NCBI GenBank assembly: GCA_028718635.1
Contig: JAQULK010000001.1
Location: 242,944-306,943 of the forward strand
Direction of reading: 5' to 3'
Length of the DNA stretch: 64,000 nt
Source: Minisyncoccota bacterium
GTDB taxonomy: Bacteria; Patescibacteriota; Minisyncoccia; Phycocordibacterales; UBA9973
Program-made: the position numbers and the translations under genes
Notes under the pieces: model-generated
Databases searched by the model: none
What the model saw: the letters and a program-made list of their open reading frames with translations, nothing else
Told to the model about the DNA's origin: nothing
Part shown: positions 501 through 61,566 of the stretch, piece by piece
Layout of the letters: the number at the start of each line of letters is the position of its first letter
Numbering within the stretch: position 1 is the stretch's first letter

Positions 501-622
501 ATCCCGTTAGAAGTCCTATAGTTAATTAAAATCACAACTAGTGATATAATGAAGTCATGTCTTGTAGTCTTTATTATTTAATTTACTACGGAAATCTAAA
601 GATTTCCTACTTCTAACGGGAT
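501..622 (+). repeat. start-codon-embedding inverted-repeat element, copy 1 (ATCCCGTTAGAAG ... CTTCTAACGGGAT)
   Basis: Perfect 13-bp terminal inverted repeats at 501-513 and 610-622. The ATG of the downstream gene (621-623) shares its A and T with the right repeat. The interior is AT-rich and contains a GGAAATC-TAAA-GATTTCC sub-hairpin. It is flanked by direct ATGAAT(CCC). Confidence 0.8.
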
Positions 623-4400: not shown

Positions 4401-5765
4401 ATGAAAAAAACAGCCAAAATAACATTTTGCGGGGGGGTAGGCACAGTAACGGGTGCTAATTTTCTTTTAGAGATTGACGGCAAGAAAATTCTAGTCGATT
4501 GCGGTCTTACTCAAGGAGACAAAATGGATGACGCCATCAATTGGGAGCCTTTTATATACGATCCGAAAGAAATAGATATTCTTTTTGTGACCCATGGGCA
4601 CATCGATCACTTGGGAAGGATTCCAAAATTAATCAATGACGGATTCCATGGAAAAATTTATTCCACCGAACCGACAAAAGGACTTGCCTTGCCTATGCTT
4701 GAAGATACTGCAGGCATCTTGAGCAACTACACTGCCCTCGGTTTAGATAAAATCTACACAGCGGAAAATATAAAATCAGCTTTATCGCTTTGGCAGGGCT
4801 TTACCTATCACGAGACGATAAAAATCACAGATAATTTAGAGGTTGTTATGTTAAATGCCGGGCATATTTTAGGTTCGGCGATGATTGAGTTTCTTTATAA
4901 TGGAAAGAAAATTCTTTTTACCGGAGATCTAGGCAACAGTCCTTCGCCGATCCTTCCTGATACAGAAAAAGTCACTGATGCGGATTATTTAATAATTGAA
5001 AGTGTTTATGGAGATAGGAATCACGAGTCGAGAGAAGATCGCAAAAGATTCTTGGAAGAAGCAATTGAAGATAATTATAAAAGAAAGGGTACATTAATTA
5101 TTCCTACTTTTTCTCTCGAGCGTTCTCAGGAGCTTTTGTTTGAATTGGATGATTTGGTCACTAATAATCGCATTCCAATGATGCCTATTTTTTTAGATTC
5201 TCCTTTGGCTATTCGTTTGACTGAAGTTTTCAAAAAATATAAAAGTTATTTTAATGAGAATGCGCAAAAAGTGATACATCCTGGTAGACATCTTTTTGAT
5301 TTTCCGGGGCTTCACGACACTTTGCAATCCAAAGAATCGCAAATGATTAGAAATGTGCCCAATCCTAAAATAGTTATCGCTGGGTCCGGAATGTCGACTG
5401 GCGGACGTATCGTGCATCATGAAAGACATTATTTGCCAGACCCAAACAATACTTTGCTTTTGACTGGGTATCAATCTGTCGGCACCCCGGGGCGTCTAAT
5501 AGAGGAAGGAATGAAGACAGTGCGAATAACTGGAGAAGATGTGGCCATAAGGTCGCATATTGTAAAGATTTCTGGGTACTCAGGACACAAAGATTCGGAT
5601 GGGCTTGTAAATTTTGTGGGAGATATGGAAGATACAGTCAAGAAAGTTTTTGTGGTTATGGGAGAGCCAAAATCATCGATGTTTTTAGTTCAGAAATTAA
5701 GAGATTGTTTAGGCCTTGAAGCTTTTGCTCCGGAGAGAGGGGAGAGCGTGGTTTTGGAATGTTAA
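4401..5765 (+). CDS. metallo-beta-lactamase fold, beta-CASP family ribonuclease (RNase J-like)
   Basis: ILVDCGL...HGHIDHLG MBL motif, with later HxH/D motifs and beta-CASP-like spacing. 454 aa. Confidence 0.6.
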   Translation: MKKTAKITFCGGVGTVTGANFLLEIDGKKILVDCGLTQGDKMDDAINWEPFIYDPKEIDILFVTHGHIDHLGRIPKLINDGFHGKIYSTEPTKGLALPMLEDTAGILSNYTALGLDKIYTAENIKSALSLWQGFTYHETIKITDNLEVVMLNAGHILGSAMIEFLYNGKKILFTGDLGNSPSPILPDTEKVTDADYLIIESVYGDRNHESREDRKRFLEEAIEDNYKRKGTLIIPTFSLERSQELLFELDDLVTNNRIPMMPIFLDSPLAIRLTEVFKKYKSYFNENAQKVIHPGRHLFDFPGLHDTLQSKESQMIRNVPNPKIVIAGSGMSTGGRIVHHERHYLPDPNNTLLLTGYQSVGTPGRLIEEGMKTVRITGEDVAIRSHIVKISGYSGHKDSDGLVNFVGDMEDTVKKVFVVMGEPKSSMFLVQKLRDCLGLEAFAPERGESVVLEC

Positions 5766-5886
5766 TCCCGTACGAAGTCCTTCAGTTAATTAAAGTCATA
5801 ATAAATGTTATACTAAGACAGTATTTTAAAGTCGTTATTAATAATTTAACTACGGAAATCTAAAGATTTCCTACTTCGTACGGGAT
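5765..5886 (+). repeat. start-codon-embedding inverted-repeat element, copy 2 (ATCCCGTACGAAG ... CTTCGTACGGGAT)
   Basis: 13-bp inverted repeats at 5765-5777 and 5874-5886. ATG is at 5885. The interior is about 70% similar to copy 1, including the GGAAATCTAAAGATTTCC sub-hairpin. Both arms carry compensatory TTAG>TACG and CTAA>CGTA changes. Confidence 0.8.
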
Positions 5887-6505
5887 GGATTCTAAAATTA
5901 ATTTTCCAGACAAACATGGACATAACCAAATAAAGATTTGTGTTTCAGGCGCGGCGGAGACAGGAAATTGCGGAGTAGACGCACTAGAAAAAGCCAAAGA
6001 ACTTGGACGCGAGATTGCGCGTCAGGGAGCCGTGCTTGTAACAGGCGCCACGACCGGATTTCCTTTTTGGGCAGCGATGGGAACGAAAGAAGCAGGCGGG
6101 ATTTCTGTGGGGATATCTCCTGCAGCTTCAGAAAAAGAACACGTCGAAGTGTACAAGCTTCCTCTAGATTATATGGATTTGATTATTTATACTGGTTTTG
6201 GTTATCCCGGGCGCGATCTTTTACTTACTCGCAGCTCTGACGCAGTTATTTGCGGTTGCGGGCGCATAGGTACTATTCACGAGTTCACAGTTGCTTTTGA
6301 AGATGGAAAACCTATTGGTATTTTCAAAGGTACATGGGAAATGGGAGCAGAACTTGAAGAGATTATTGCCAAGGGGCATCGCCCAAATTCTAAAATAGTC
6401 GTCGGGAATGATCCAAAGGAACTTTTAGAAGACGTTATTGCCCTTGTTAGAAAAGACAAGATACCGGAATACAAAATTACAAAAACTCCAATGCCCAGCA
6501 AGTAA
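5885..6505 (+). CDS. Rossmann-fold SLOG/TIGR00725-like nucleotide-binding protein
   Basis: KICVSGAAETG...VLVTGATTGFPFWAAMGTKEAGG...VICGCGRIGTIHEF resembles TIGR00725/LOG-like proteins. Confidence 0.45.
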   Translation: MDSKINFPDKHGHNQIKICVSGAAETGNCGVDALEKAKELGREIARQGAVLVTGATTGFPFWAAMGTKEAGGISVGISPAASEKEHVEVYKLPLDYMDLIIYTGFGYPGRDLLLTRSSDAVICGCGRIGTIHEFTVAFEDGKPIGIFKGTWEMGAELEEIIAKGHRPNSKIVVGNDPKELLEDVIALVRKDKIPEYKITKTPMPSK

Positions 6506-6551
6506 GAAACTATAAAAAACTCAAGATTTATCTTGAGTTTTTTATAGTTTC

Positions 6552-6896
6552 TTACTTTATCGCTGCTAAAACTTTAGCAAAAGTTTCTGGGTGATGTTCT
6601 GCGAAGTCAGAAAGGATTTTTCTATCCAGCATTATGTTTTTCTTATGAAGGGCACCGATCAATTTTGAATAAGACATACCGAGCTCTCTCGCGCCGGCGT
6701 TGATTTTTATATTCCAGAGTTTGCGATTGTGAGATTTTTTATCTTTTCTGTGGGCGAAAGAATAACTTCCAGCATGCAGAAGCGCATCTTTTGCTAGGCG
6801 TTCCTTGGTAGAACGTCCATGGCGCATTCCTTTGGTCTGTTTCAAAACACTTCTTCTTCTTTTTAACGCATGTACTCCTTTTTTTACTCTGGTCAT
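6552..6896 (-). CDS. rplT: 50S ribosomal protein L20
   Basis: MTRVKKGVHALKRRR...GRSTKERLAKDALLHAGSY... is the canonical L20 sequence. Confidence 0.9.
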   Translation of the reverse strand: MTRVKKGVHALKRRRSVLKQTKGMRHGRSTKERLAKDALLHAGSYSFAHRKDKKSHNRKLWNIKINAGARELGMSYSKLIGALHKKNIMLDRKILSDFAEHHPETFAKVLAAIK

Positions 6897-9087: not shown

Positions 9088-9102
9088 ATAAATAATTAAA
9101 TC

Positions 9103-9129
9103 AAAAAACACCCTGCAGGGTGTTTTTTG
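9103..9129. terminator. bidirectional rho-independent terminator (AACACCCTG-CAGGGTGTT flanked by A-run and T-run)
   Basis: Hairpin plus T6 on the + strand after the 8614 gene. The A-run on the other side makes it usable by minus-strand ssrA. Confidence 0.7.
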
Positions 9130-9135
9130 ATTTTG

Positions 9136-9532
9136 TGGAGATGGGGGAAATTGAATCCCCGTGCAGAAGGTTATTGTAAAGAAGTCTACATATATAGCGC
9201 GCTTTTTTGTTTAGATTAAAAAATTCTTAAGCGAGCCAAATATTTTTTAATCGAGTTCTTTTGTTTCGAAAAAAAGTCAGAACAGTCTTTTCTCTATCCC
9301 GATAATATTATGCCTCATCTTATATATCGGAAGTCTATAAGAGAGACACCAGCCGAGCTTACGCGAAGGCTGGAGCGAAAGCGAAATCCTTCATACCGAA
9401 GTAAGGAGAAAGTGCAGCTTTTGCTTTAGCAGTCAATTTTGCAATTAACATTTGGACGAATTTTTACGAGATTACGTCCATGCTCGATATGCATCAATAA
9501 CAAATGGCCAACTGTCTATGCCTGGCATCCCC
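9136..9532 (-). ncRNA. ssrA: candidate tmRNA (ssrA), about 397 nt
   Basis: On the minus strand, 5' GGGGATG pairs with 3' CATCTCC to give a 7-bp acceptor stem (one G-U), followed by discriminator A. The T-arm is GGGGA-TTCAATT-TCCCC. An internal ORF GCT AAA GCA AAA GCT GCA ... GCT CCA GCC TTC GCG TAA encodes a tag ending AFAPAFA*. It lies adjacent to smpB. Confidence 0.55.
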
Positions 9533-17541: not shown

Positions 17542-19728
17542 TCACTCGAAATGAAATTCGCTGGTTTTTTGGTGCACTTTTTGTTTTAGGAGGGGGTATT
17601 TCAAGAGTTCTGGATCTTTTTCTATTAGAGCTATGGCTTCTGTGCGGGCGGCTTCTACCATTTTTATATTCTTTATGGCTTCCATGCCGAGATCGGTGAT
17701 ACCCCATTGTTTCGTACCTCCGAGTTCTCCTGCACCGCGGATAGTTAGGTCTAATTCAGCCAATTCAAAACCATTTTTGGCGGTTTTTAAAGCTTTTAAG
17801 CGAGCAATTGTTTTTTCGCTTTTCGCTTCAGCGAAAATATAACAATAAGCTTGATGGGAACTTCGGATGACGCGTCCGCGAAGTTGGTGAAGTTGGGCTA
17901 GGCCGAAACGTTCAGCCCCTTCGATTATTATTACTGTCGCGTTTGGAACATTAACCCCCACTTCTACCACAGAGGTAGCACACAATATATTTATTTTCCC
18001 TTCGGTAAATTCTTGCATCACTTTTTCTTTTTTTTCTTTGCTCATTTTACTGTGCAAAACTCCTATTTCATATTCTTGAAAAACCCCTTTTTTTAATCTT
18101 TTAGCCTCGGCTTCTGCTGATTTTACATTGAGAGCTAATTCTTTTTCTGGATCTGGTTCGTTGATTCTCGGGCAAATAACATACAGCTGTCTGCCAGCTT
18201 TTAATTCTTGGCGAATTTTTTCATAAGTTTCATTGCGTTTATTCGGGGTGATTATTTCAGTAATTATTTGTTTTCTGCCCAGAGGCATTTCCTCAAGAAG
18301 AGATAAATCCAAGTCACCATATATTGTGAGCGCAAGTGTGCGGGGTATGGGGGTGGCAGTCATTGAGAGCAGGTGTGGTGCAATGTTATCTTTGTGGACA
18401 AGTTTCCTTCGTTGGGCTGTGCCGAAACGGTGTTGTTCATCAATTACCACAAAAGCCAAATTTTTAAATTTTACAGTTTTTTGAATAAGCGCATGGGTGC
18501 CGATTAAAATTGGGATTTCTCCATTTGCTACCCATTTTAATAGTTGGGCGCGAGAGATAGTGGTCCAACCGCTAGGATTTAATTTAGAAGGAAATTTACG
18601 ACAACCTGATCCAGTGATGAGTCCGATGTTTATTGGTAGATGTTTAAAATATTCTATAAAAGATTCGAAATGCTGGGTGGCCAATATTTCTGTCGGTGCC
18701 ATATAGGCTGTTTGTAGATTACCAAAAGTTTGAGATTTGCCAGAAGTGTTATCGAAGGGTCTTTGATTTTGAACTACATAAGCCGCGGTGGCAGCGACGG
18801 CAGTTTTGCCGCTCCCTACGTCGCCTTCAAGCAAGCGAGACATTGGAAAAGTTTTTCCCATGTCATTCAGTATTGTTTCTATAGCTTTTTTTTGTGAGAC
18901 AGTTAGTTCAAAAGGGAAACGAGATAAAAATTTATCTACGTTTAAAGCAAGAGGTCCCACTTTTATTTGGAAAGATTTATTTTTTCTATATTCAAATTTA
19001 TCGTGTTGGCGTTCCAGCTGGATACAGAAAACTTCCTCAAAAGCGAATCTTTTGCGCGCAGACTCCGCATCCTTTTTATTTTTTGGTTTATGTATCCAAA
19101 CAAGCGCAGTTTTTAAAGTCGGTAAGTGATATTTTTTAAGAATATTGTCTGGGATATAATCTTGGATGTTATCTAATGTTTTATCTTTAAATATTTTTTC
19201 TATTGCGTGATAAAACCATTTAGAAGTAATGCCTCGAGTTTCAGCGTAAATAGGGTAAGAAAAACCAGAATTGGAGGTTTTGTTTTTTGTGAATAGAGTA
19301 TCGTGCATATCTATCGGCATATTGGGTAATTTTTCAAATTCTGGATTCGCCAAATAAATACTATTTTTCCCTTGGCTAACTTTCCCTGTAAGTTTCACAT
19401 TTTCTCCTTCTTTCATCATTTTGGCTAAATAAGCTTGGTTGAACCAAGTTATTTTTATTTTTCCAGACAGGTCTTCTATTTCACCCTCAGCCATAGGAAT
19501 ATGAGATCGAAAAGCTTTTTTTGTTTTCAGTTTTGATACTTTGCCGTAGACCGTAGCCATATCGCCAGCAACAAGATCTGCAATATTTTTTACTTCACTC
19601 ATATCGCTATATCTGACAGGGAAGTATCCAAGCAAATCTGCCACTGAAAAAATATTTAATTTACGCAAAGCTCTTTTTTGATTTACATCTAGGCGGAATT
19701 TTTCTTCCAGTTTGTTATGAAGCTCCAT
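17542..19728 (-). CDS. recG: ATP-dependent DNA helicase RecG
   Basis: Wedge domain, GDVGSGKT, VIDEQHRFG, and the helicase C-terminal motifs. Confidence 0.85.
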   Translation of the reverse strand: MELHNKLEEKFRLDVNQKRALRKLNIFSVADLLGYFPVRYSDMSEVKNIADLVAGDMATVYGKVSKLKTKKAFRSHIPMAEGEIEDLSGKIKITWFNQAYLAKMMKEGENVKLTGKVSQGKNSIYLANPEFEKLPNMPIDMHDTLFTKNKTSNSGFSYPIYAETRGITSKWFYHAIEKIFKDKTLDNIQDYIPDNILKKYHLPTLKTALVWIHKPKNKKDAESARKRFAFEEVFCIQLERQHDKFEYRKNKSFQIKVGPLALNVDKFLSRFPFELTVSQKKAIETILNDMGKTFPMSRLLEGDVGSGKTAVAATAAYVVQNQRPFDNTSGKSQTFGNLQTAYMAPTEILATQHFESFIEYFKHLPINIGLITGSGCRKFPSKLNPSGWTTISRAQLLKWVANGEIPILIGTHALIQKTVKFKNLAFVVIDEQHRFGTAQRRKLVHKDNIAPHLLSMTATPIPRTLALTIYGDLDLSLLEEMPLGRKQIITEIITPNKRNETYEKIRQELKAGRQLYVICPRINEPDPEKELALNVKSAEAEAKRLKKGVFQEYEIGVLHSKMSKEKKEKVMQEFTEGKINILCATSVVEVGVNVPNATVIIIEGAERFGLAQLHQLRGRVIRSSHQAYCYIFAEAKSEKTIARLKALKTAKNGFELAELDLTIRGAGELGGTKQWGITDLGMEAIKNIKMVEAARTEAIALIEKDPELLKYPLLKQKVHQKTSEFHFE

Positions 19729-20007
19729 ATAGTTTATAATATACCCATGGACACACTTCTACAATCTCAAGTTTTCTTTTTTATATCTTCTATGGGCTTT
19801 GTTGTTTTGTGGATTTTAACAGCGATATTTTTGTTTTACCTTATTCGCATCACTCGCGCCTTTTCAAGGATTATGGATAAAATAGAAGATAATATAAATG
19901 AAATTGGTGATACTACGAAAGAAATGTTGGGAGATTTACGAGATAGTGCATTATTTAGTTTCTTTTTAAGAAAAAAAAGAAAAAGTCGCAAGGGTCGTGA
20001 AGATTAA
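19717..20007 (+). CDS. small membrane protein (hypothetical)
   Basis: 96 aa with one long hydrophobic helix. Confidence 0.3.
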   Translation: MKLHIVYNIPMDTLLQSQVFFFISSMGFVVLWILTAIFLFYLIRITRAFSRIMDKIEDNINEIGDTTKEMLGDLRDSALFSFFLRKKRKSRKGRED

Positions 20008-20113
20008 TCCCGTTAGAAATTTACAAAACGGGAAAATATTATTAAATTAACAATAATCAACTGTCTTTATATATAAAAATAAATGTACAGATAGTATGAT
20101 TTCTAAACGGGAT
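20007..20113 (+). repeat. start-codon-embedding inverted-repeat element, copy 3 (ATCCCGTTAGAAAT ... ATTTCTAAACGGGAT, one bulged A)
   Basis: Inverted repeats at 20007-20020 and 20099-20113. ATG is at 20112. A proximal AAACGGGA at 20027-20034 can alternatively pair with the left repeat. Confidence 0.75.
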
Positions 20114-20486
20114 GAAAAAAAATAACAAAAAAATGTCAGTTGGGAAAAAGGTAGCAGTGGGAGCAGCAGGGGCAGCAGCTATTAGCGCAGTTGGAGCTGG
20201 AGTATATTATTTATTCGGTCCCAAAGCTAAAGTGCACCAAAAGAAAACAAAAGCTTTGATCTCCAAGATGAAAAAAGAGATAGACAGAGAAGTAAAAAAA
20301 GCCAGGAAGGTTACCGCCCCTATTTATGACGACGTCGTAAATGCCATTTCTTCAAATTACGCTAAACAATATAAAATTCACGAAGGAGATATAAAAGCTC
20401 TTGCCAAGAAAATGAAAGATGAATGGAAAGGAGTGAATAAAGTTGCTAAAAAAACTGTAAGAAATATTAAAAAGAAAAGTCTATAA
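20112..20486 (+). CDS. lysine-rich membrane-anchored protein (hypothetical)
   Basis: N-terminal hydrophobic segment VGKKVAVGAAGAAAISAVGAGVYYLF followed by a charged tail. Confidence 0.35.
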   Translation: MKKNNKKMSVGKKVAVGAAGAAAISAVGAGVYYLFGPKAKVHQKKTKALISKMKKEIDREVKKARKVTAPIYDDVVNAISSNYAKQYKIHEGDIKALAKKMKDEWKGVNKVAKKTVRNIKKKSL

Positions 20487-23317: not shown

Positions 23318-23404
23318 GGAGAGATGGGTGAGTGGTTGAAACCAACAGTTTACTAAACTGTCGTCCCTTTAAAAGGACCGAGGGTTCGAATCCCTCTCTC
23401 TCCG
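23318..23404 (+). tRNA. class II (Ser-type architecture) tRNA with an unusual anticodon loop TTACTAA, apparent anticodon ACT
   Basis: Acceptor GGAGAGA/TCTCTCC, 3-bp D-stem GGT/ACC with loop GAGTGGTTGAA (parallel to E. coli tRNA-Ser), anticodon arm ACAGT-TTACTAA-ACTGT, long variable arm GTCC..GGAC, T-arm GAGGG-TTCGAAT-CCCTC, G73. Confidence 0.6.
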
Positions 23405-23492
23405 CAGTCAGTATTTAGTATCGGAAGACTCTGATGCTCGACACTTTCTTTAGTGTGATAACTATTGGTTTTTAATATATACTTTACTCAGT

Positions 23493-27397: not shown

Positions 27398-28717
27398 TTA
27401 ATCAATCAAAGTAAGAACTTTTACAGTAATTTTTATTTTAGACTTAAAACATCCCATCAGCTCTCGCTTTTCTTGATTGGTGCCTTCTTTAAAAATATAC
27501 TTGGCATAAGTTCTTAAATCTATGTCTTCGTGCTTAGTCTTTGAATTTTGGACTCCCAATACTCCTTTTTGAAATCTATTATGCCGCTTCAATTCATCCT
27601 CAAATTTATGTTGTATCCCAATTTTATTCAGATCCACCTTATCTAGACTAATAAGGAGTTGATCAATTAATTCTTCTTCCCTCATATATGGGTTCTTGCA
27701 ATGTCGATCCCTTGATCTTCCGCATCCATAGTAAATATACTTAGCTACCGTTCCATCTTTTAGTTGTTTGTATTTCTCTTCAGCTGATATTCCAGAGCCA
27801 CATAGTCCGCAGGTCATTAATTTTGTAAAGGCAAACTCATGACTTTGTCGTATAATATTGTCTCTTTTTAATTGTGCCTGCACTTGTTCAAATAATTCTT
27901 TAGTGACTATTGGTTCATGTTTGCCTGCGTACCAATTACCTGATTTTTTTGGATACTCAAATGTTCCATAATAGAATGGGTTCATCAAAGTTCGGTAAAT
28001 ATTTCCAAGTGCTAGGTTTTTATTTCCTATTGTCTTGAAATTTAATTCAAACTTAAGCCACTGATGTACCTTTCTGCCGGACCATTTATCGTATGCAACT
28101 TTTTCGTACATTTTCTTTATGATATGCCCACGATCAGGATCAATAATTACCTGACACTTTTTATCCATAAGTTTTTGATTAAGATATCCAGTTGGTGCCA
28201 CTCCAGGCCATAACCCCATCTCTACTCTTGTTCTCAACCCTCGCTTCACATTAATTCCTCGATTATCATTTTCAAGTTTTGCTTGTCCACATAAAATCAT
28301 CAACATGAATTTGTCGTTTGGCGAGTTCATGAACCGTTGACCAAATGTTCGGATGTCTTGCAATAAATTCGCATCCATTAAGTCTACAATTTTCCCAAGA
28401 TCGCCCGCGTTACGACTGATGCGGTCAGGAGCCCACGTCAAAATTCCATTGAATTTTCCTTGCTTTAGTTCTTCAATAATTTCGTTAAAGACTGGTCGTT
28501 GTCCGGTTTCTTTTGCACTATGTGATTCTCTTTTCATTGTAATAACCTCTAATCCCTCACGATCTGCGAGTTGTAACATCTCCTTAATTTGGCTGTCTAT
28601 GCTCAAAACCTGCCGTTCTTCAGACTCAGTGCTTTTTCTTGCATAAAGGCAGTATTTTACCTTTATGGGAGTTGCTTGTTTGACCGTCACTCCAGTCGGC
28701 ATTTGCATCGTATTCAT
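27398..28717 (-). CDS. large serine recombinase (resolvase/invertase-type catalytic domain plus recombinase and zinc-ribbon domains)
   Basis: YARKSTESEERQVLSIDSQ (catalytic Ser region), a resolvase fold, and a C-terminal CGLCGS...YYGC zinc ribbon. Confidence 0.8.
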   Translation of the reverse strand: MNTMQMPTGVTVKQATPIKVKYCLYARKSTESEERQVLSIDSQIKEMLQLADREGLEVITMKRESHSAKETGQRPVFNEIIEELKQGKFNGILTWAPDRISRNAGDLGKIVDLMDANLLQDIRTFGQRFMNSPNDKFMLMILCGQAKLENDNRGINVKRGLRTRVEMGLWPGVAPTGYLNQKLMDKKCQVIIDPDRGHIIKKMYEKVAYDKWSGRKVHQWLKFELNFKTIGNKNLALGNIYRTLMNPFYYGTFEYPKKSGNWYAGKHEPIVTKELFEQVQAQLKRDNIIRQSHEFAFTKLMTCGLCGSGISAEEKYKQLKDGTVAKYIYYGCGRSRDRHCKNPYMREEELIDQLLISLDKVDLNKIGIQHKFEDELKRHNRFQKGVLGVQNSKTKHEDIDLRTYAKYIFKEGTNQEKRELMGCFKSKIKITVKVLTLID

Positions 28718-33403: not shown

Positions 33404-33585
33404 TTGACCTAACCCCTAAAATCTTTAGGATATGGTCTTATGAAAACTCGCTACAAGATAAAGAACCCTTCGTCAGGGTACTTGTAGCGAGTCATAATCG
33501 GAAACGGTTATGGGTGGTCGAAAGACCATCGCCCGGCGGAGGGCTTTTTGTCTCTCTAGGCAACTAATAAAACTCGCTACAAAAA
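33404..33585 (+). promoter_or_regulatory. promoter-like site (-35 TTGACC, -10 TAGGAT) plus a structured leader with three copies of AACTCGCTACAAG (two direct, one inverted) and a terminator-like GCCCGGCGGAGGGC-T5
   Basis: Repeats at 33442-33455, 33481-33494 (inverted) and 33572-33585 (abutting the ATG at 33586). A GGTGGTC-GAAA-GACCATC tetraloop hairpin sits at 33513-33530. Confidence 0.4.
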
Positions 33586-55055: not shown

Positions 55056-55177
55056 ATCCCGTTAGAAGCCGCGATCGCAATTTAAAATATAAACAAAATA
55101 TGAAATCAAGGAAAATAGAAATTAATAACTTAAAATATCAGATATGCGAATTGATCGCGATCTGCTTCTAACGGGAT
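55056..55177 (+). repeat. start-codon-embedding inverted-repeat element, copy 4 (extended GC stem GAAGCCGCGATCGC), preceding pilM
   Basis: Inverted repeats at 55056-55068 and 55165-55177. ATG is at 55176. It is flanked by direct ATGGAT. Confidence 0.8.
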
Positions 55178-57644: not shown

Positions 57645-58076
57645 ATGCCAAAAATTAAAAACATTATAATATTCGTAGCAATAGCATTAATATTCTTTTT
57701 AATTTATCTTTTTTTTGCAAAACCAGAAGGAGAACAAGCCAGTCTAGTGTCTTCCGGGGCAAACGCCACTTTGCCAAACATGGATGGCTCTATCCCAAAT
57801 CCAAGTACTTCAAATACCAACTCTGAAGTCGCAAAAGATTTTCTTGTAATATTTTCTAATATCAAAAATATAAAGTTAAATGATGCTATTTTTTCTGATC
57901 CAGCCTTCAATAGCTTGCATGATTCTAGTATTATACTTATCCCAGATGGTACCGAAGGTAGGCCAAATCCATTTGCTCCATTTGGTAATGATGCCGCACC
58001 TGCACCAGCATCTACAACTGTAAATAATTCAACTTCCGCTCCAACTGCTCCAGCATCGTCTAATTCTAAAATATAA
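57645..58076 (+). CDS. TM-anchored Ser/Thr/Pro-rich protein (PilP-like position)
   Basis: N-terminal TM. The C-terminus is rich in P, A, S and T. Confidence 0.3.
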   Translation: MPKIKNIIIFVAIALIFFLIYLFFAKPEGEQASLVSSGANATLPNMDGSIPNPSTSNTNSEVAKDFLVIFSNIKNIKLNDAIFSDPAFNSLHDSSIILIPDGTEGRPNPFAPFGNDAAPAPASTTVNNSTSAPTAPASSNSKI

Positions 58077-58195
58077 TCCCGTTAGAAGCCGCGGTCGCAG
58101 TAATATAAAAAAATATGTTTATAAAAAATATAAAATTTAATAAAATAATAAAGCATAGTCACGGCATACTGACCGCGACCTGCTTCTAACGGGAT
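58076..58195 (+). repeat. start-codon-embedding inverted-repeat element, copy 5 (extended GC stem GAAGCCGCGGTCGC), preceding pilB
   Basis: Inverted repeats at 58076-58088 and 58183-58195. ATG is at 58194. The left repeat starts at the last A of the upstream TAA. Confidence 0.8.
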
Positions 58196-59973: not shown

Positions 59974-60375
59974 ATGGAAAGTGAAAAAAAGAAAATTTTA
60001 ATAGTCGATGACGATAGTTTCCTTTTAGATATGTATGCGCTTAAATTCAGCCAAAATAATTTTGAAGTTTACACTGCAAGCAATGGTGTTCATGCATTAG
60101 AAAAACTCAAAGGGGGACTATCTCCCGATATTCTTTTGATTGATATAATTATGCCGGAAATGGACGGTTTTGAAACCTTAACTCAAATAAATGCGGAGAA
60201 GTTGTGTCCAAATTCTGTAAAAATAATTTTATCCAATAAAAGTGAACAAAAAGATATAGATGAAGGCAACAAATTGGGGGTAGTGGGTTATATTGTGAAA
60301 GCAAATTTCACTCCAGGAGAAGTTATTGAACAAGTTGAAAAAATTTTAGAACAAAAAAATCATGGATCCCGTTAG
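59974..60375 (+). CDS. response regulator receiver domain protein (PilH/CheY-like)
   Basis: ILIVDDD...DILLIDIIMPEMDGFE. The TAG stop lies inside the left repeat of element copy 6. Confidence 0.75.
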   Translation: MESEKKKILIVDDDSFLLDMYALKFSQNNFEVYTASNGVHALEKLKGGLSPDILLIDIIMPEMDGFETLTQINAEKLCPNSVKIILSNKSEQKDIDEGNKLGVVGYIVKANFTPGEVIEQVEKILEQKNHGSR

Positions 60376-60446
60376 AAATAAAAAAATATTGAAAACGGGT
60401 TATAATAAGTTAAGTATTATTAATTAATATAAATTTCTAACGGGAT
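60366..60446 (+). repeat. start-codon-embedding inverted-repeat element, copy 6 (ATCCCGTTAGAAAT ... ATTTCTAACGGGAT), preceding pilT
   Basis: Inverted repeats at 60366-60379 and 60433-60446. ATG is at 60445. It is flanked by direct ATGGAT. A proximal AACGGG at 60402-60407 allows alternative pairing. Confidence 0.8.
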
Positions 60447-61503
60447 GGATTATAAAAAAGAACTTGAAGATCTTATTTTGAATGTTATTCACGAAGGTGG
60501 TTCAGACTTGCATTTGGGTGTTGGACGTGTGCCGGCGATTCGTGTGTCCGGAGAACTTATTTTTCTAACGAAACATTCAATTTTAACAAAAGAAGACGTT
60601 TTGGGAATTTTGGGAGAAATTCTAGAAAAACCGCAAATTGATAATTTCAAAGAAAATTTTGAAGCTGATTTTTCTTATGATTTTCGCGGAGAAGCCAGAT
60701 TGCGCGGGAATGCTTTTTTTCAAAAAGGTTTAATCAATATAGTTTTTCGATTGGTGCCTAAAGTCCAAACCATAGAGCAATTGCGTTTGCCTCCGATTTT
60801 AGCTGACTTGGCTCGTAAAAAACAAGGATTCTTTTTAGTCGTCGGTCCAGTTGGGCAAGGTAAATCAACTACATTATCTGCGATGATAAATGTGATAAAT
60901 AATGAGCAAGCGCGCCATATAGTAACCATCGAAGATCCGATTGAACACATATATGTGCCCAATAAATCCATAATCAATCAGCGGGAAGTTGGTATTGATA
61001 CCAAAGATTTTCATGTCGCGCTAAAAGAAGTTTTTCGCGAAGATGTAAATGTGATCATGGTTGGCGAAATGCGCACCCCAGAGACAATTTCCACTGCTGT
61101 AACGGCAGCTGAAACCGGGCACCTTGTGCTTTCTACTCTTCATACCAACAATGCTTCTCAAACTATAGATAGAATTATTGATTCTTTTCCAGGAAGCCAA
61201 CAAGATCAAATTCGCGCTCAGCTTTCTTCCTCCTTGCTCGGTATTTTTTCTCAGAGACTTATTCCCAGAATTGCGGGCGGGCTTGTTCCGGCTTATGAAC
61301 TTCTTTTAAACAACAACGCGGTTTCTAATTTAATTCGTGAAAAACGCACGCACGAAATAGATGTGGTTATAGAAACGGGGATGGAATCCGGAATGGTGGA
61401 CTTGAACCACTCCCTGCTTGAGCTTTTACGCGCTGGGGAAATTTCTATAGAGAACGCTTATCAGAACTCTTTTAATCCAAAAGGTCTAGAACGATTAATT
61501 TAA
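60445..61503 (+). CDS. pilT: twitching motility ATPase PilT
   Basis: GPVGQGKSTT and the PilT family length and motifs. Confidence 0.85.
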   Translation: MDYKKELEDLILNVIHEGGSDLHLGVGRVPAIRVSGELIFLTKHSILTKEDVLGILGEILEKPQIDNFKENFEADFSYDFRGEARLRGNAFFQKGLINIVFRLVPKVQTIEQLRLPPILADLARKKQGFFLVVGPVGQGKSTTLSAMINVINNEQARHIVTIEDPIEHIYVPNKSIINQREVGIDTKDFHVALKEVFREDVNVIMVGEMRTPETISTAVTAAETGHLVLSTLHTNNASQTIDRIIDSFPGSQQDQIRAQLSSSLLGIFSQRLIPRIAGGLVPAYELLLNNNAVSNLIREKRTHEIDVVIETGMESGMVDLNHSLLELLRAGEISIENAYQNSFNPKGLERLI

Positions 61504-61505
61504 GA

Positions 61506-61550
61506 TTCCGGACGTTGGACGTCCGAAAAACGGACGTCCAACGTCCGGAA
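61506..61550. other. perfect 20-bp inverted repeat TTCCGGACGTTGGACGTCCG-AAAAA-CGGACGTCCAACGTCCGGAA between pilT and pilC
   Basis: Read directly from the sequence. It is GC-rich in an AT-rich region, contains nested palindromes (GGACGTCC), and is not followed by a T-run. Confidence 0.85.
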
Positions 61551-61566
61551 TAAGGTAAACAAAACT

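Follow-up and report, generated by a model that had tools for sequence, protein, structure and literature searches.

The described systems that come closest to the repeat analysed here are the MITEs, or miniature inverted-repeat transposable elements, for which a definition and the example of the Neisseria Correia element (CREE) are available (PMC3184786). The Correia element is small and non-coding, has terminal inverted repeats (TIRs) and a short target duplication, and is dispersed, being present or absent between strains; it also gives a long hairpin when transcribed, is often located 5' of genes and can carry promoters, and in all these respects it resembles our repeat (PMC3184786). The latter occurs six times (copies 1 to 6, or c1 to c6) in a 64,000-nt stretch of DNA from a Minisyncoccota bacterium, called the window below, and the MITE features of small size, absence of coding capacity, TIRs, target duplication, dispersed copies and insertion polymorphism are all encountered again. 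Copy 3, at 20007-20113, had attracted attention in an earlier note on this DNA, together with copy 6, because its left repeat can pair either with a nearby AACGGG motif, here called the proximal box, or with the distal right repeat that contains the start codon; this was described as a riboswitch-like, two-state architecture. What had been overlooked is that the repeat is a mobile insertion element. We consider it very probable that copy 3 belongs to a Patescibacteria-wide set of palindromic, non-coding insertion elements of about 60-160 bp, which land on start codons and duplicate them along with the 2-3 nt that follow (ATGxA(T)). The box itself is tentatively read as a kinetic decoy partner of the left arm in the mRNA, and not as part of a ligand sensor. 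A kinetic decoy is indeed plausible, and a riboswitch is unsupported.

Pattern searches of the window showed that all six copies lie on the + strand, with their right end ACGGGATG at the start of an open reading frame (ORF), and 6 of the 68 window genes start behind an element (Table 1). The right terminus ends in ...CGGG|ATG, so the working start codon would be half inside the stem. For the whole set, the predicted fold is the distal stem; minimum free energies (MFE) range from -20.5 to -40.8 kcal/mol and z-scores from -3.4 to -6.7. The arms of copy 2 (CCCGTACGAA/TTCGTACGGG) are distinguished by compensatory changes at two adjacent pairs, and the stem extensions of copies 4 and 5 (CGCGATC/GATCGCG versus CGCGGTC/GACCGCG, with a 4-nt bulge) differ likewise. 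Paired transcription-factor operators were rejected as an explanation, since the arms change together (TTAG/CTAA to TACG/CGTA) and the extended stems covary. In the interior hairpin of the c3 subfamily, an alignment of six sequences showed four pairs with compensatory changes as well as U.G pairs conserved on the sense strand. Apart from a spurious miRNA match, Rfam gave nothing at the elements, either at the gathering threshold or at E <= 10. As a side observation, all six copies precede + strand genes, in a window with 41 genes on the + strand and 27 on the - strand, which may be due to chance (about 5%).

Table 1. Window coordinates of the element copies and of the features of copies 3 and 6.
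Feature	Position	Strand	Remark
Copy 1, before the gene of a 922-aa TraG/VirD4-like ATPase	501-622	+	direct repeat ATGAAT(CCC)
Copy 2, before a SLOG-family gene	5765-5886	+	arms are the compensatory variant CCCGTACGAA/TTCGTACGGG
TAA stop of the DUF948-like ORF on the upstream side (19717-20007)	20005-20007	+	final A is the first base of the left repeat
Copy 3 (ATCCCG...CGGGAT)	20007-20113	+	107 bp
Copy 3, left terminal repeat ATCCCGTTAGAAAT	20007-20020	+	
Copy 3, proximal box AACGGGA	20027-20033	+	alternative partner of TCCCGTT 20008-20014
Copy 3, interior hairpin of the c3 subfamily	20060-20095	+	MFE fold
Copy 3, right terminal repeat ATTTCTAAACGGGAT	20099-20113	+	bulged A at 20105; last two bases are the AT of the start codon
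ORF downstream of copy 3, 124 aa	20112-20486	+	no Pfam family; ATG 20112-20114 common to empty-site relatives
Copy 4, before pilM	55056-55177	+	direct repeat ATGGAT
Copy 5, before pilB	58076-58195	+	junction abuts stop codon
Copy 6, before pilT (60445-61503)	60366-60446	+	
Copy 6, left repeat ATCCCGTTAGAAAT	60366-60379	+	
Copy 6, proximal box AACGGG	60394-60399	+	
Copy 6, right repeat ATTTCTAACGGGAT	60433-60446	+	ATG at 60445-60447
Copy 6, duplicated target ATGGAT	left 60362-60367, right 60445-60450	+	

Clear indications of mobility were obtained by comparing relatives, filled and empty alleles being found at four loci (pilM, pilB, pilT and that of copy 3). Loci with related elements from other genomes or relatives are numbered L001 to L248, and 166 related elements, window included, were gathered. 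L121 and L122, with a PilT 97% identical to that of the window, have no element at pilM, pilB or pilT. The pilT junction is AAAAATCATGGATTATAAAA in these empty alleles and AAAAATCATGGA(TCCCG...CGGGATGGA)TTATAAAA in the window, with the element in parentheses, which reads as a clean insertion accompanied by duplication of the start codon region. The target duplication was checked against the empty sites for both pilT and pilM. A c6-type element is present in a 94% relative (L123, L124) and absent in a 92% relative (L125). At the copy 3 locus, the element is found in L126, on the same contig as L121, and is replaced in L127 and L128 by an AT-rich spacer of 32-34 nt. Presence in some close relatives and absence with clean empty sites in others point to a MITE-like mobile element, not to a gene-specific regulator. 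Alleles created by assembly artefacts look excluded, as do elements restricted to orthologous positions.

The junctions of elements from other genomes follow the same rules. Of the 119 elements in the main set, 103 have an ATG no more than 6 nt from the left arm; in 101 of these, the base or bases following it agree with those after the right ATG, and A comes next in 98. Compared position by position, the direct repeat matches in 97-110 of the 119 elements at each of its first five bases and in 38 at the sixth, which is probably the trace of a 5-6-bp duplication whose sixth base, a third codon position, would since have drifted. Where the flank is other than AT, a CCCG...CGGG core is bordered by 6-bp repeats (ATGAGT/ATGAGT, ATGCGT/ATGCGT and GTGTAC/GCGTAC). 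Among the remaining elements, the upstream stop codon often abuts the arm, as in c2, c3 and c5. L011, the orthologue of c2, still has TAG, an 8-nt spacer and then ATGG before the arm; the window form of c2 has thus arisen by later deletion. Copies inside operons, c3 among them, have very probably likewise lost the old spacer together with the left copy of the start codon, which leaves the upstream stop against the left arm. The tandem elements L013, L089 and L072 share an ATGA junction (...CTAACGGGATGAATCCCGTTAG...), and the hybrid arms of L072 (TTAG left, CGTA right) indicate recombination between copies. NTGRA fits 39 of the 68 gene starts of the window, whose non-coding DNA has 26 ATGRA sites. 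Target preference combined with purging of coding insertions predicts about 60% of insertions at start codons versus about 90% observed, an excess beyond what that account provides.

One genome per species was scanned with ATCCCGTNNGAA-N(46-106)-TTCNNACGGGAT, which gave at least 120 loci and 126 elements listed; a second, independent sample consists of 47 elements from metagenomes. Judged from bin names, nearly all matches listed come from Patescibacteria, the Candidate Phyla Radiation (CPR), over many named lineages and about 34-59% GC. The family has the termini ATCCCGTTAGAA/TTCTAACGGGAT and TIRs of 12-14 bp (ATCCCGTTAGAAR...YTTCTAACGGGAT). Its elements span 57-161 bp and are non-coding apart from short upstream ORFs (uORFs) with a median of 19.5 codons. 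The central dinucleotides of the arms are complementary in 121 of the 126 listed elements (115 TA/TA and 6 AC/GT), and in 113 a G follows the element on exactly one side, giving an ATG there. Interiors form subfamilies, which are common to different genomes yet lie before unrelated genes. The c4-type interior, before pilM here, precedes genes that, from their N-terminal sequences, we take to be murG-like (L040) and pyrD-like (L098); the c5-type interior, before pilB here, likewise precedes a presumably alaS-like gene in L092. More generally, 87 downstream proteins match 110 Pfam families, the largest with 4 members. A competence or pilus regulon motif, as the pilM, pilB, pilT and comF-like neighbours might have suggested, was rejected because the downstream genes elsewhere are unrelated. 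Carriage by phages was also rejected, since a viral collection gave a single match. A loose scan for solo arms proved too permissive and is informative for flank counts only. No published description of such a family was found when the literature was searched by sequence and keywords, and the family appears to be undescribed so far. Of note, six loci (L014, L041, L042, L067, L075 and L080) come from bins labelled Omnitrophota, WOR-3, Gammaproteobacteria, Planctomycetaceae or Sedimentisphaerales, which could be either mis-binned CPR contigs or a real spread outside CPR.

The pairing partners described for copy 3, namely TCCCGTT and AACGGGA separated by 12 nt, are present as reported, except that the box had been extended by one base, to 20034. 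For copy 6, the arm segment CCCGTT (60368-60373) and the 20-nt spacing were right; the box had been placed at 60402-60407, 8 nt off. The restriction of the box to these two copies was confirmed, the other four lacking it, and the two mutually exclusive partners of the left repeat are supported as well. About 65 nt separate the box of copy 3 from its right repeat. AACGGG occurs 16 times on both strands of the window, 10 times in arms, twice as a box and 4 times elsewhere in about 63 kb; at this background rate, about 0.016 occurrences would be expected in the roughly 510 nt of element interiors. CGGGA is similarly enriched in the interiors of 119 elements from other genomes (25, versus 3.7 +/- 2.0 in shuffles), with no enrichment of its complement TCCCG (3 versus 2.4). 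Its position is constrained too: 28 of 32 CGGG[A/T] occurrences lie 4-33 nt inside the gene-distal (left) arm. In the metagenome sample, the box is found beside the gene-distal arm in 13 of the 47 elements and at the mirror position in one. A chance origin could be excluded from enrichment, orientation and position taken together.

Searching for the box beyond the window showed its conservation in other genomes, where it is present in about 28% of related elements, in every case complementary to the gene-distal arm. The copy 3 box is kept in L126, L001, L143, L179 and L198; among elements of the two types, it is kept in c3-type L001 and L126 and in c6-type L005, L123 and L124. The consensus of the box, WARCGGGAT, amounts to a third copy of the (right) terminus, though a partial one. 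In 48 boxes, CGGG is preceded 25 times by A, 20 times by G, 3 times by T and never by C; the right arm always has A there. Both A and G can pair with U7 of the arm. Close relatives show a C to T change in the arm together with a C to T change in the box (L123), and an A to G change in the box (L126); pairing is kept in 3 cases out of 3, only as G.U. A link between the box and an operon-internal position was also considered and discarded, there being no association.

Folding of the complete leaders gives a clear equilibrium picture. For copy 3, the distal fold has an MFE of -24.6 kcal/mol, compared with -20.9 when the proximal helix is forced, and the proximal fraction at equilibrium is 6e-4; the local hairpin amounts to -7.8 kcal/mol, with an exit barrier of 9.8. 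The corresponding values for copy 6 are -20.5, -11.4, 2e-6, -7.9 and 8.0. The notion of a fold that buries the ATG holds for the distal stem, which includes the AU of AUG; as an equilibrium alternative, the proximal fold is negligible. The nascent transcript behaves differently: when it ends before the right arm, the proximal hairpin is the MFE structure in both copies. Over 48 box-bearing elements, the nascent MFE structure pairs the arm with the box in 44, and in 46 the full-length one adopts the distal stem. The barriers of 8-10 kcal/mol, and not a kinetic computation, lead us to infer a lifetime of the order of seconds for the proximal state.

Whether the left arm is part of the mRNA can be approached through the reading frame opened by the left ATG. 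Of 144 elements, 50 have no stop codon in this frame over the whole interior, and the other two phases are open in 18 and 14 (binomial p = 3e-7). The UAA of the right arm, 4 nt ahead of the real ATG, terminates 34 of these uORFs (7.6 +/- 2.4 in shuffles), as it does the 39-codon uORF of copy 4, which starts at its left ATG; 14 others end just beyond the real ATG, the stop being, where listed, the UGA of an overlapping AUGA. Only 1 of the 34 cases with left and right ATG in frame is stop-free. In-frame translated insertion of the kind known for the Rickettsia palindromic elements was rejected, the distance between the two ATGs being least often a multiple of 3 (26 of 103) and in-frame cases being so rarely open. 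The pilM gene has an extended -10 motif of its own, TGTTATACT, which the empty (L123) and the filled (window) alleles both place upstream of the left ATG, so that the c4 transcript should contain both arms. Together with the compensatory pairs of the c3 interior hairpin, these observations speak for translation of the duplicated start codon and for ribosomes that would cross the stem. Open uORFs are also rarer in box-bearing elements (7/40 versus 43/104, p = 0.01), which fits with two alternative ways of opening the stem.

The following mechanism can be proposed. The closed stem would block initiation. Once transcribed, or after a ribosome has melted the long stem, arm and box would form a hairpin of 6-9 bp (about -6 to -10 kcal/mol), which would hold the left arm off the right arm for roughly seconds, the start codon being meanwhile single-stranded; the long-range stem would then close by strand displacement and shut initiation. 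Across the family, the main openers would be ribosomes, either starting at the left AUG and reading through, or terminating at an abutting stop codon (the TAA at 20005-20007 for c3, and the TAG at 60373-60375, inside the arm, for c6). The box would then capture the left arm and prolong the exposure of the start codon. Taken as a whole, a mobile start-codon element carrying a kinetic decoy box is the best explanation we can offer, and one about which our doubt slightly exceeds our confidence.

Several points weigh against it. Concerning insertion, the length of the direct repeat varies (4-6 nt, occasionally more) and the repeat is absent in 16 of the 119 elements; there is no transposase or autonomous element in the window, nor any long TIR-bounded unit in about 1 Mb of loci, the collections not having been scanned for long-spaced termini. 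No transposase-like family was seen among the 50 window proteins scanned. Concerning the box, the proximal helix is negligible at equilibrium, with free-energy gaps of 3.7 (c3) and 9.1 kcal/mol (c6), and the free 3' half of the left arm would offer a toehold to the right arm, so that the latch is probably short-lived. The presence of the box is unrelated to operon position, and its anticorrelation with open uORFs is partly explained by lower GC. The role of the element as RNA is deduced from sequence. The higher stability of the sense over the antisense strand is mostly compositional (-1.61 versus -1.06 kcal/mol in shuffles) and was therefore rejected as a proof of such a role. Finally, a -10-like hexamer is found 0-5 nt after CGGG in 46% of cases, compared with 29% of random interior windows (p = 0.04).

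This last observation belongs to a rival explanation, which we regard as unlikely, where the box is a promoter feature at the DNA level. An outward promoter would lie near the gene-distal end, with the box just upstream of or over its -10 element; transcripts would start inside the element and form neither helix, and the likeness of the box to the terminus would reflect a shared protein-binding motif. Such a promoter would account for the strict orientation toward the gene, and MITEs with outward promoters are known (PMC3184786). Candidate motifs can be recognised in several places: CGGGTTATAAT in c6 and L156 and TGGGTTATAAT in L173 (gene-sense strands), behind the box TGTATAAT in L245 and TATAAT in the c6 subfamily, a conserved A..AT.AT 3' of the box in the c3 subfamily, and sites resembling promoters at 20014 and 20020. 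In the family a alignment, the box stands opposite the extended -10 motifs TGATATAAT (c1) and TGTTATACT (c2); rows L011 and L020 of this interior alignment were disregarded because of wrong minus-strand coordinates. However, the enrichment is weak, and AT-rich DNA easily yields such hexamers (6 sites versus 3.4 expected). A promoter also leaves unexplained why the box copies 6-9 nt of the terminus with a pairing-compatible variable base R. Nor does it account for the left-ATG frame being under selection, a fact implying that the left arm is part of the transcripts.

It is still less probable that the box serves transposition, as a subterminal binding site or hairpin for the mobilising enzyme, or that it is a relic, the right terminus remaining from a nested or a tandem insertion. 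Transposons commonly have asymmetric subterminal sites, and the box is indeed a partial copy of the terminal repeat, of up to 10 nt (CTAACGGGAT in L155). The existence of tandem elements and the recombination apparent in the hybrid arms of L072 also speak for this reading. Nevertheless, only about 28% of the elements carry a box, which is thus not needed for mobility, and the box prefers G where the terminus has A. Its constantly gene-distal position is unlike what is expected of a relic, and the inner unit implied (4-33 nt of interior) would be shorter than any free-standing element recovered.

The two remaining alternatives hardly deserve credence. A riboswitch-like leader, in which a ligand or signal would control two states for the downstream gene, is largely refuted: two mutually exclusive helices do exist, one taking in part of the start codon, but there is no conserved pocket, the arm-to-box spacer of 4-33 nt having no conserved sequence and hence leaving no aptamer, no Rfam family is matched, the downstream genes are unrelated in function, close relatives differ in whether they carry the element, and the proximal state is thermodynamically negligible, an outcome that the earlier note had itself named as speaking against its proposal. 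An inverton, whose terminal repeats would be recombinase sites and whose interior would flip to switch the gene on or off, is about as improbable. The AT-rich, promoter-like interior is indeed bounded by inverted repeats; in family a, the module with the inner hairpin is found beside the left, not the right, arm in L021, L023, L033, L055, L058 and L060, the whole L021 interior reading as the reverse complement of the family; and a large serine recombinase gene is present in the window (27398-28717). Yet the interior has the same orientation in all orthologous sets compared (c1/L009, c2/L011, c3/L126 and c6/L123/L124, a small sample), box-bearing interiors are never found flipped, the recombinase belongs to a 29-kb island absent from relatives, and inversion explains neither the start-codon duplication nor the empty sites.

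If a mobile start-codon element with a decoy box is the right explanation, roughly one gene in ten in these reduced genomes starts behind a mobile hairpin which rebuilds its start codon. This would bear on translation initiation and coupling in Patescibacteria; no Shine-Dalgarno sequence was found at the three empty pil-gene sites examined. It would also bear on gene calling in CPR genomes and on how a non-autonomous element keeps identical termini across phyla, and would indicate where to seek a new mobilising enzyme. The decoy box would then represent a compact and testable kinetic RNA latch carried by a transposable element. A broader and rather doubtful extension is that these superphylum-wide, start-codon-homing palindromes might act as portable translational gates, with a stem that hides the start codon, ribosomes that open it and a decoy box that latches a quarter of them, the constant 12-nt termini being read by an enzyme or RNA-binding factor that would be conserved over the whole radiation. 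As to gene calling, the public call for a protein identical to the product of the ORF downstream of copy 3 (P0121, 117 aa) starts 7 codons later, at 20133 instead of 20112, and start-codon elements may mislead gene callers.

Other features of the window deserve mention. The island lies at 21431-50255, about 29 kb between the 6-phosphogluconate dehydrogenase and PAP2 genes, and is absent from L126 and L127. Relatives have only two tRNA-Ser genes at this site, and those tRNAs are inverted in the window relative to L127. Its cargo comprises the large serine recombinase (on the - strand), an AlwI-like restriction enzyme with two methylases, a ParB-methylase, an HlyD/MacB transporter and a sigma-70-family factor with regions 2 and 4 only, which we take to be ECF-like (extracytoplasmic function). 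A LOOT RNA (Rfam RF03000, 80 bits) also lies inside the island, at 33406-33530. ARAGORN predicts a tRNA-Ser with anticodon ACT at 23318-23405, beside an oppositely oriented tRNA-Ser(GCT); it would be unusual for a serine tRNA to carry an unmodified A34. A transfer-messenger RNA (tmRNA) is encoded at 9133-9532 (- strand). Perfect intergenic palindromes, terminator-like, are located at 6500-6557, 9098-9133 and 61505-61551, with arms of 28, 18 and 21 nt; the last one, GC-rich, lies between pilT and pilC.

Comparison with other known systems helps to situate the family. Integron attC sites are also imperfect palindromes of 60-140 bp between ORFs, and the arm GTTAGAA resembles their GTTRRRY core. 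However, the 5'-RYYYAAC...GTTRRRY-3' order of attC is reversed here, the 5' arm having GTT and the 3' arm AAC, and the element alone, not a gene cassette, is gained or lost between alleles; no integron integrase was found near the elements when the window proteins were scanned. Repetitive extragenic palindromic sequences (REP and REPIN), 20-40 nt long, extragenic and associated with RAYT transposases, differ by their termini, which start with ATCCCG in our elements. In one account (PMC3733652), REP and REPIN are palindromes defined by GTAG or CGTC tags. Neisseria REP2 and the inverted-repeat (IR) sequences of Borrelia plasmids are closer in one respect, since they lie directly upstream of many genes, bring a promoter, a translation start region and an ATG, and contain internal stem-loops (PMC3184786). 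REP2 nevertheless has neither TIRs nor start-codon duplication, possesses a ribosome-binding site and is tied to a co-regulated gene set, whereas the present element has TIRs, precedes unrelated target genes and shows no Shine-Dalgarno-like sequence at normal spacing.

On the RNA side, riboswitch expression platforms share with the box-bearing copies two mutually exclusive helices, one of which occludes the initiation region, and differ in having an aptamer, a ligand logic, an association with gene function and an Rfam family. In the phage MS2 maturation gene, in hok mRNA and in translational coupling, the start is accessible for as long as a long-distance pairing has yet to close, or while it is being melted by an upstream ribosome, and at no other time. 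The present elements are similar in that the nascent fold differs from the equilibrium fold and that uORFs end 4 nt before the real ATG or overlap it. Those stems are single and gene-specific, whereas the present one, known from sequence and predicted folds, is carried by a mobile element to hundreds of genes. The Correia element remains the nearest counterpart, with other termini, a TA target in place of a start codon and no right end that rebuilds the start codon; here, the termini are identical across many phyla of a superphylum and not confined to one genus, and no parent insertion sequence is known. The family is set apart from known MITEs by its targeting and duplication of start codons, its superphylum-wide termini, its uORF signature and its decoy box.

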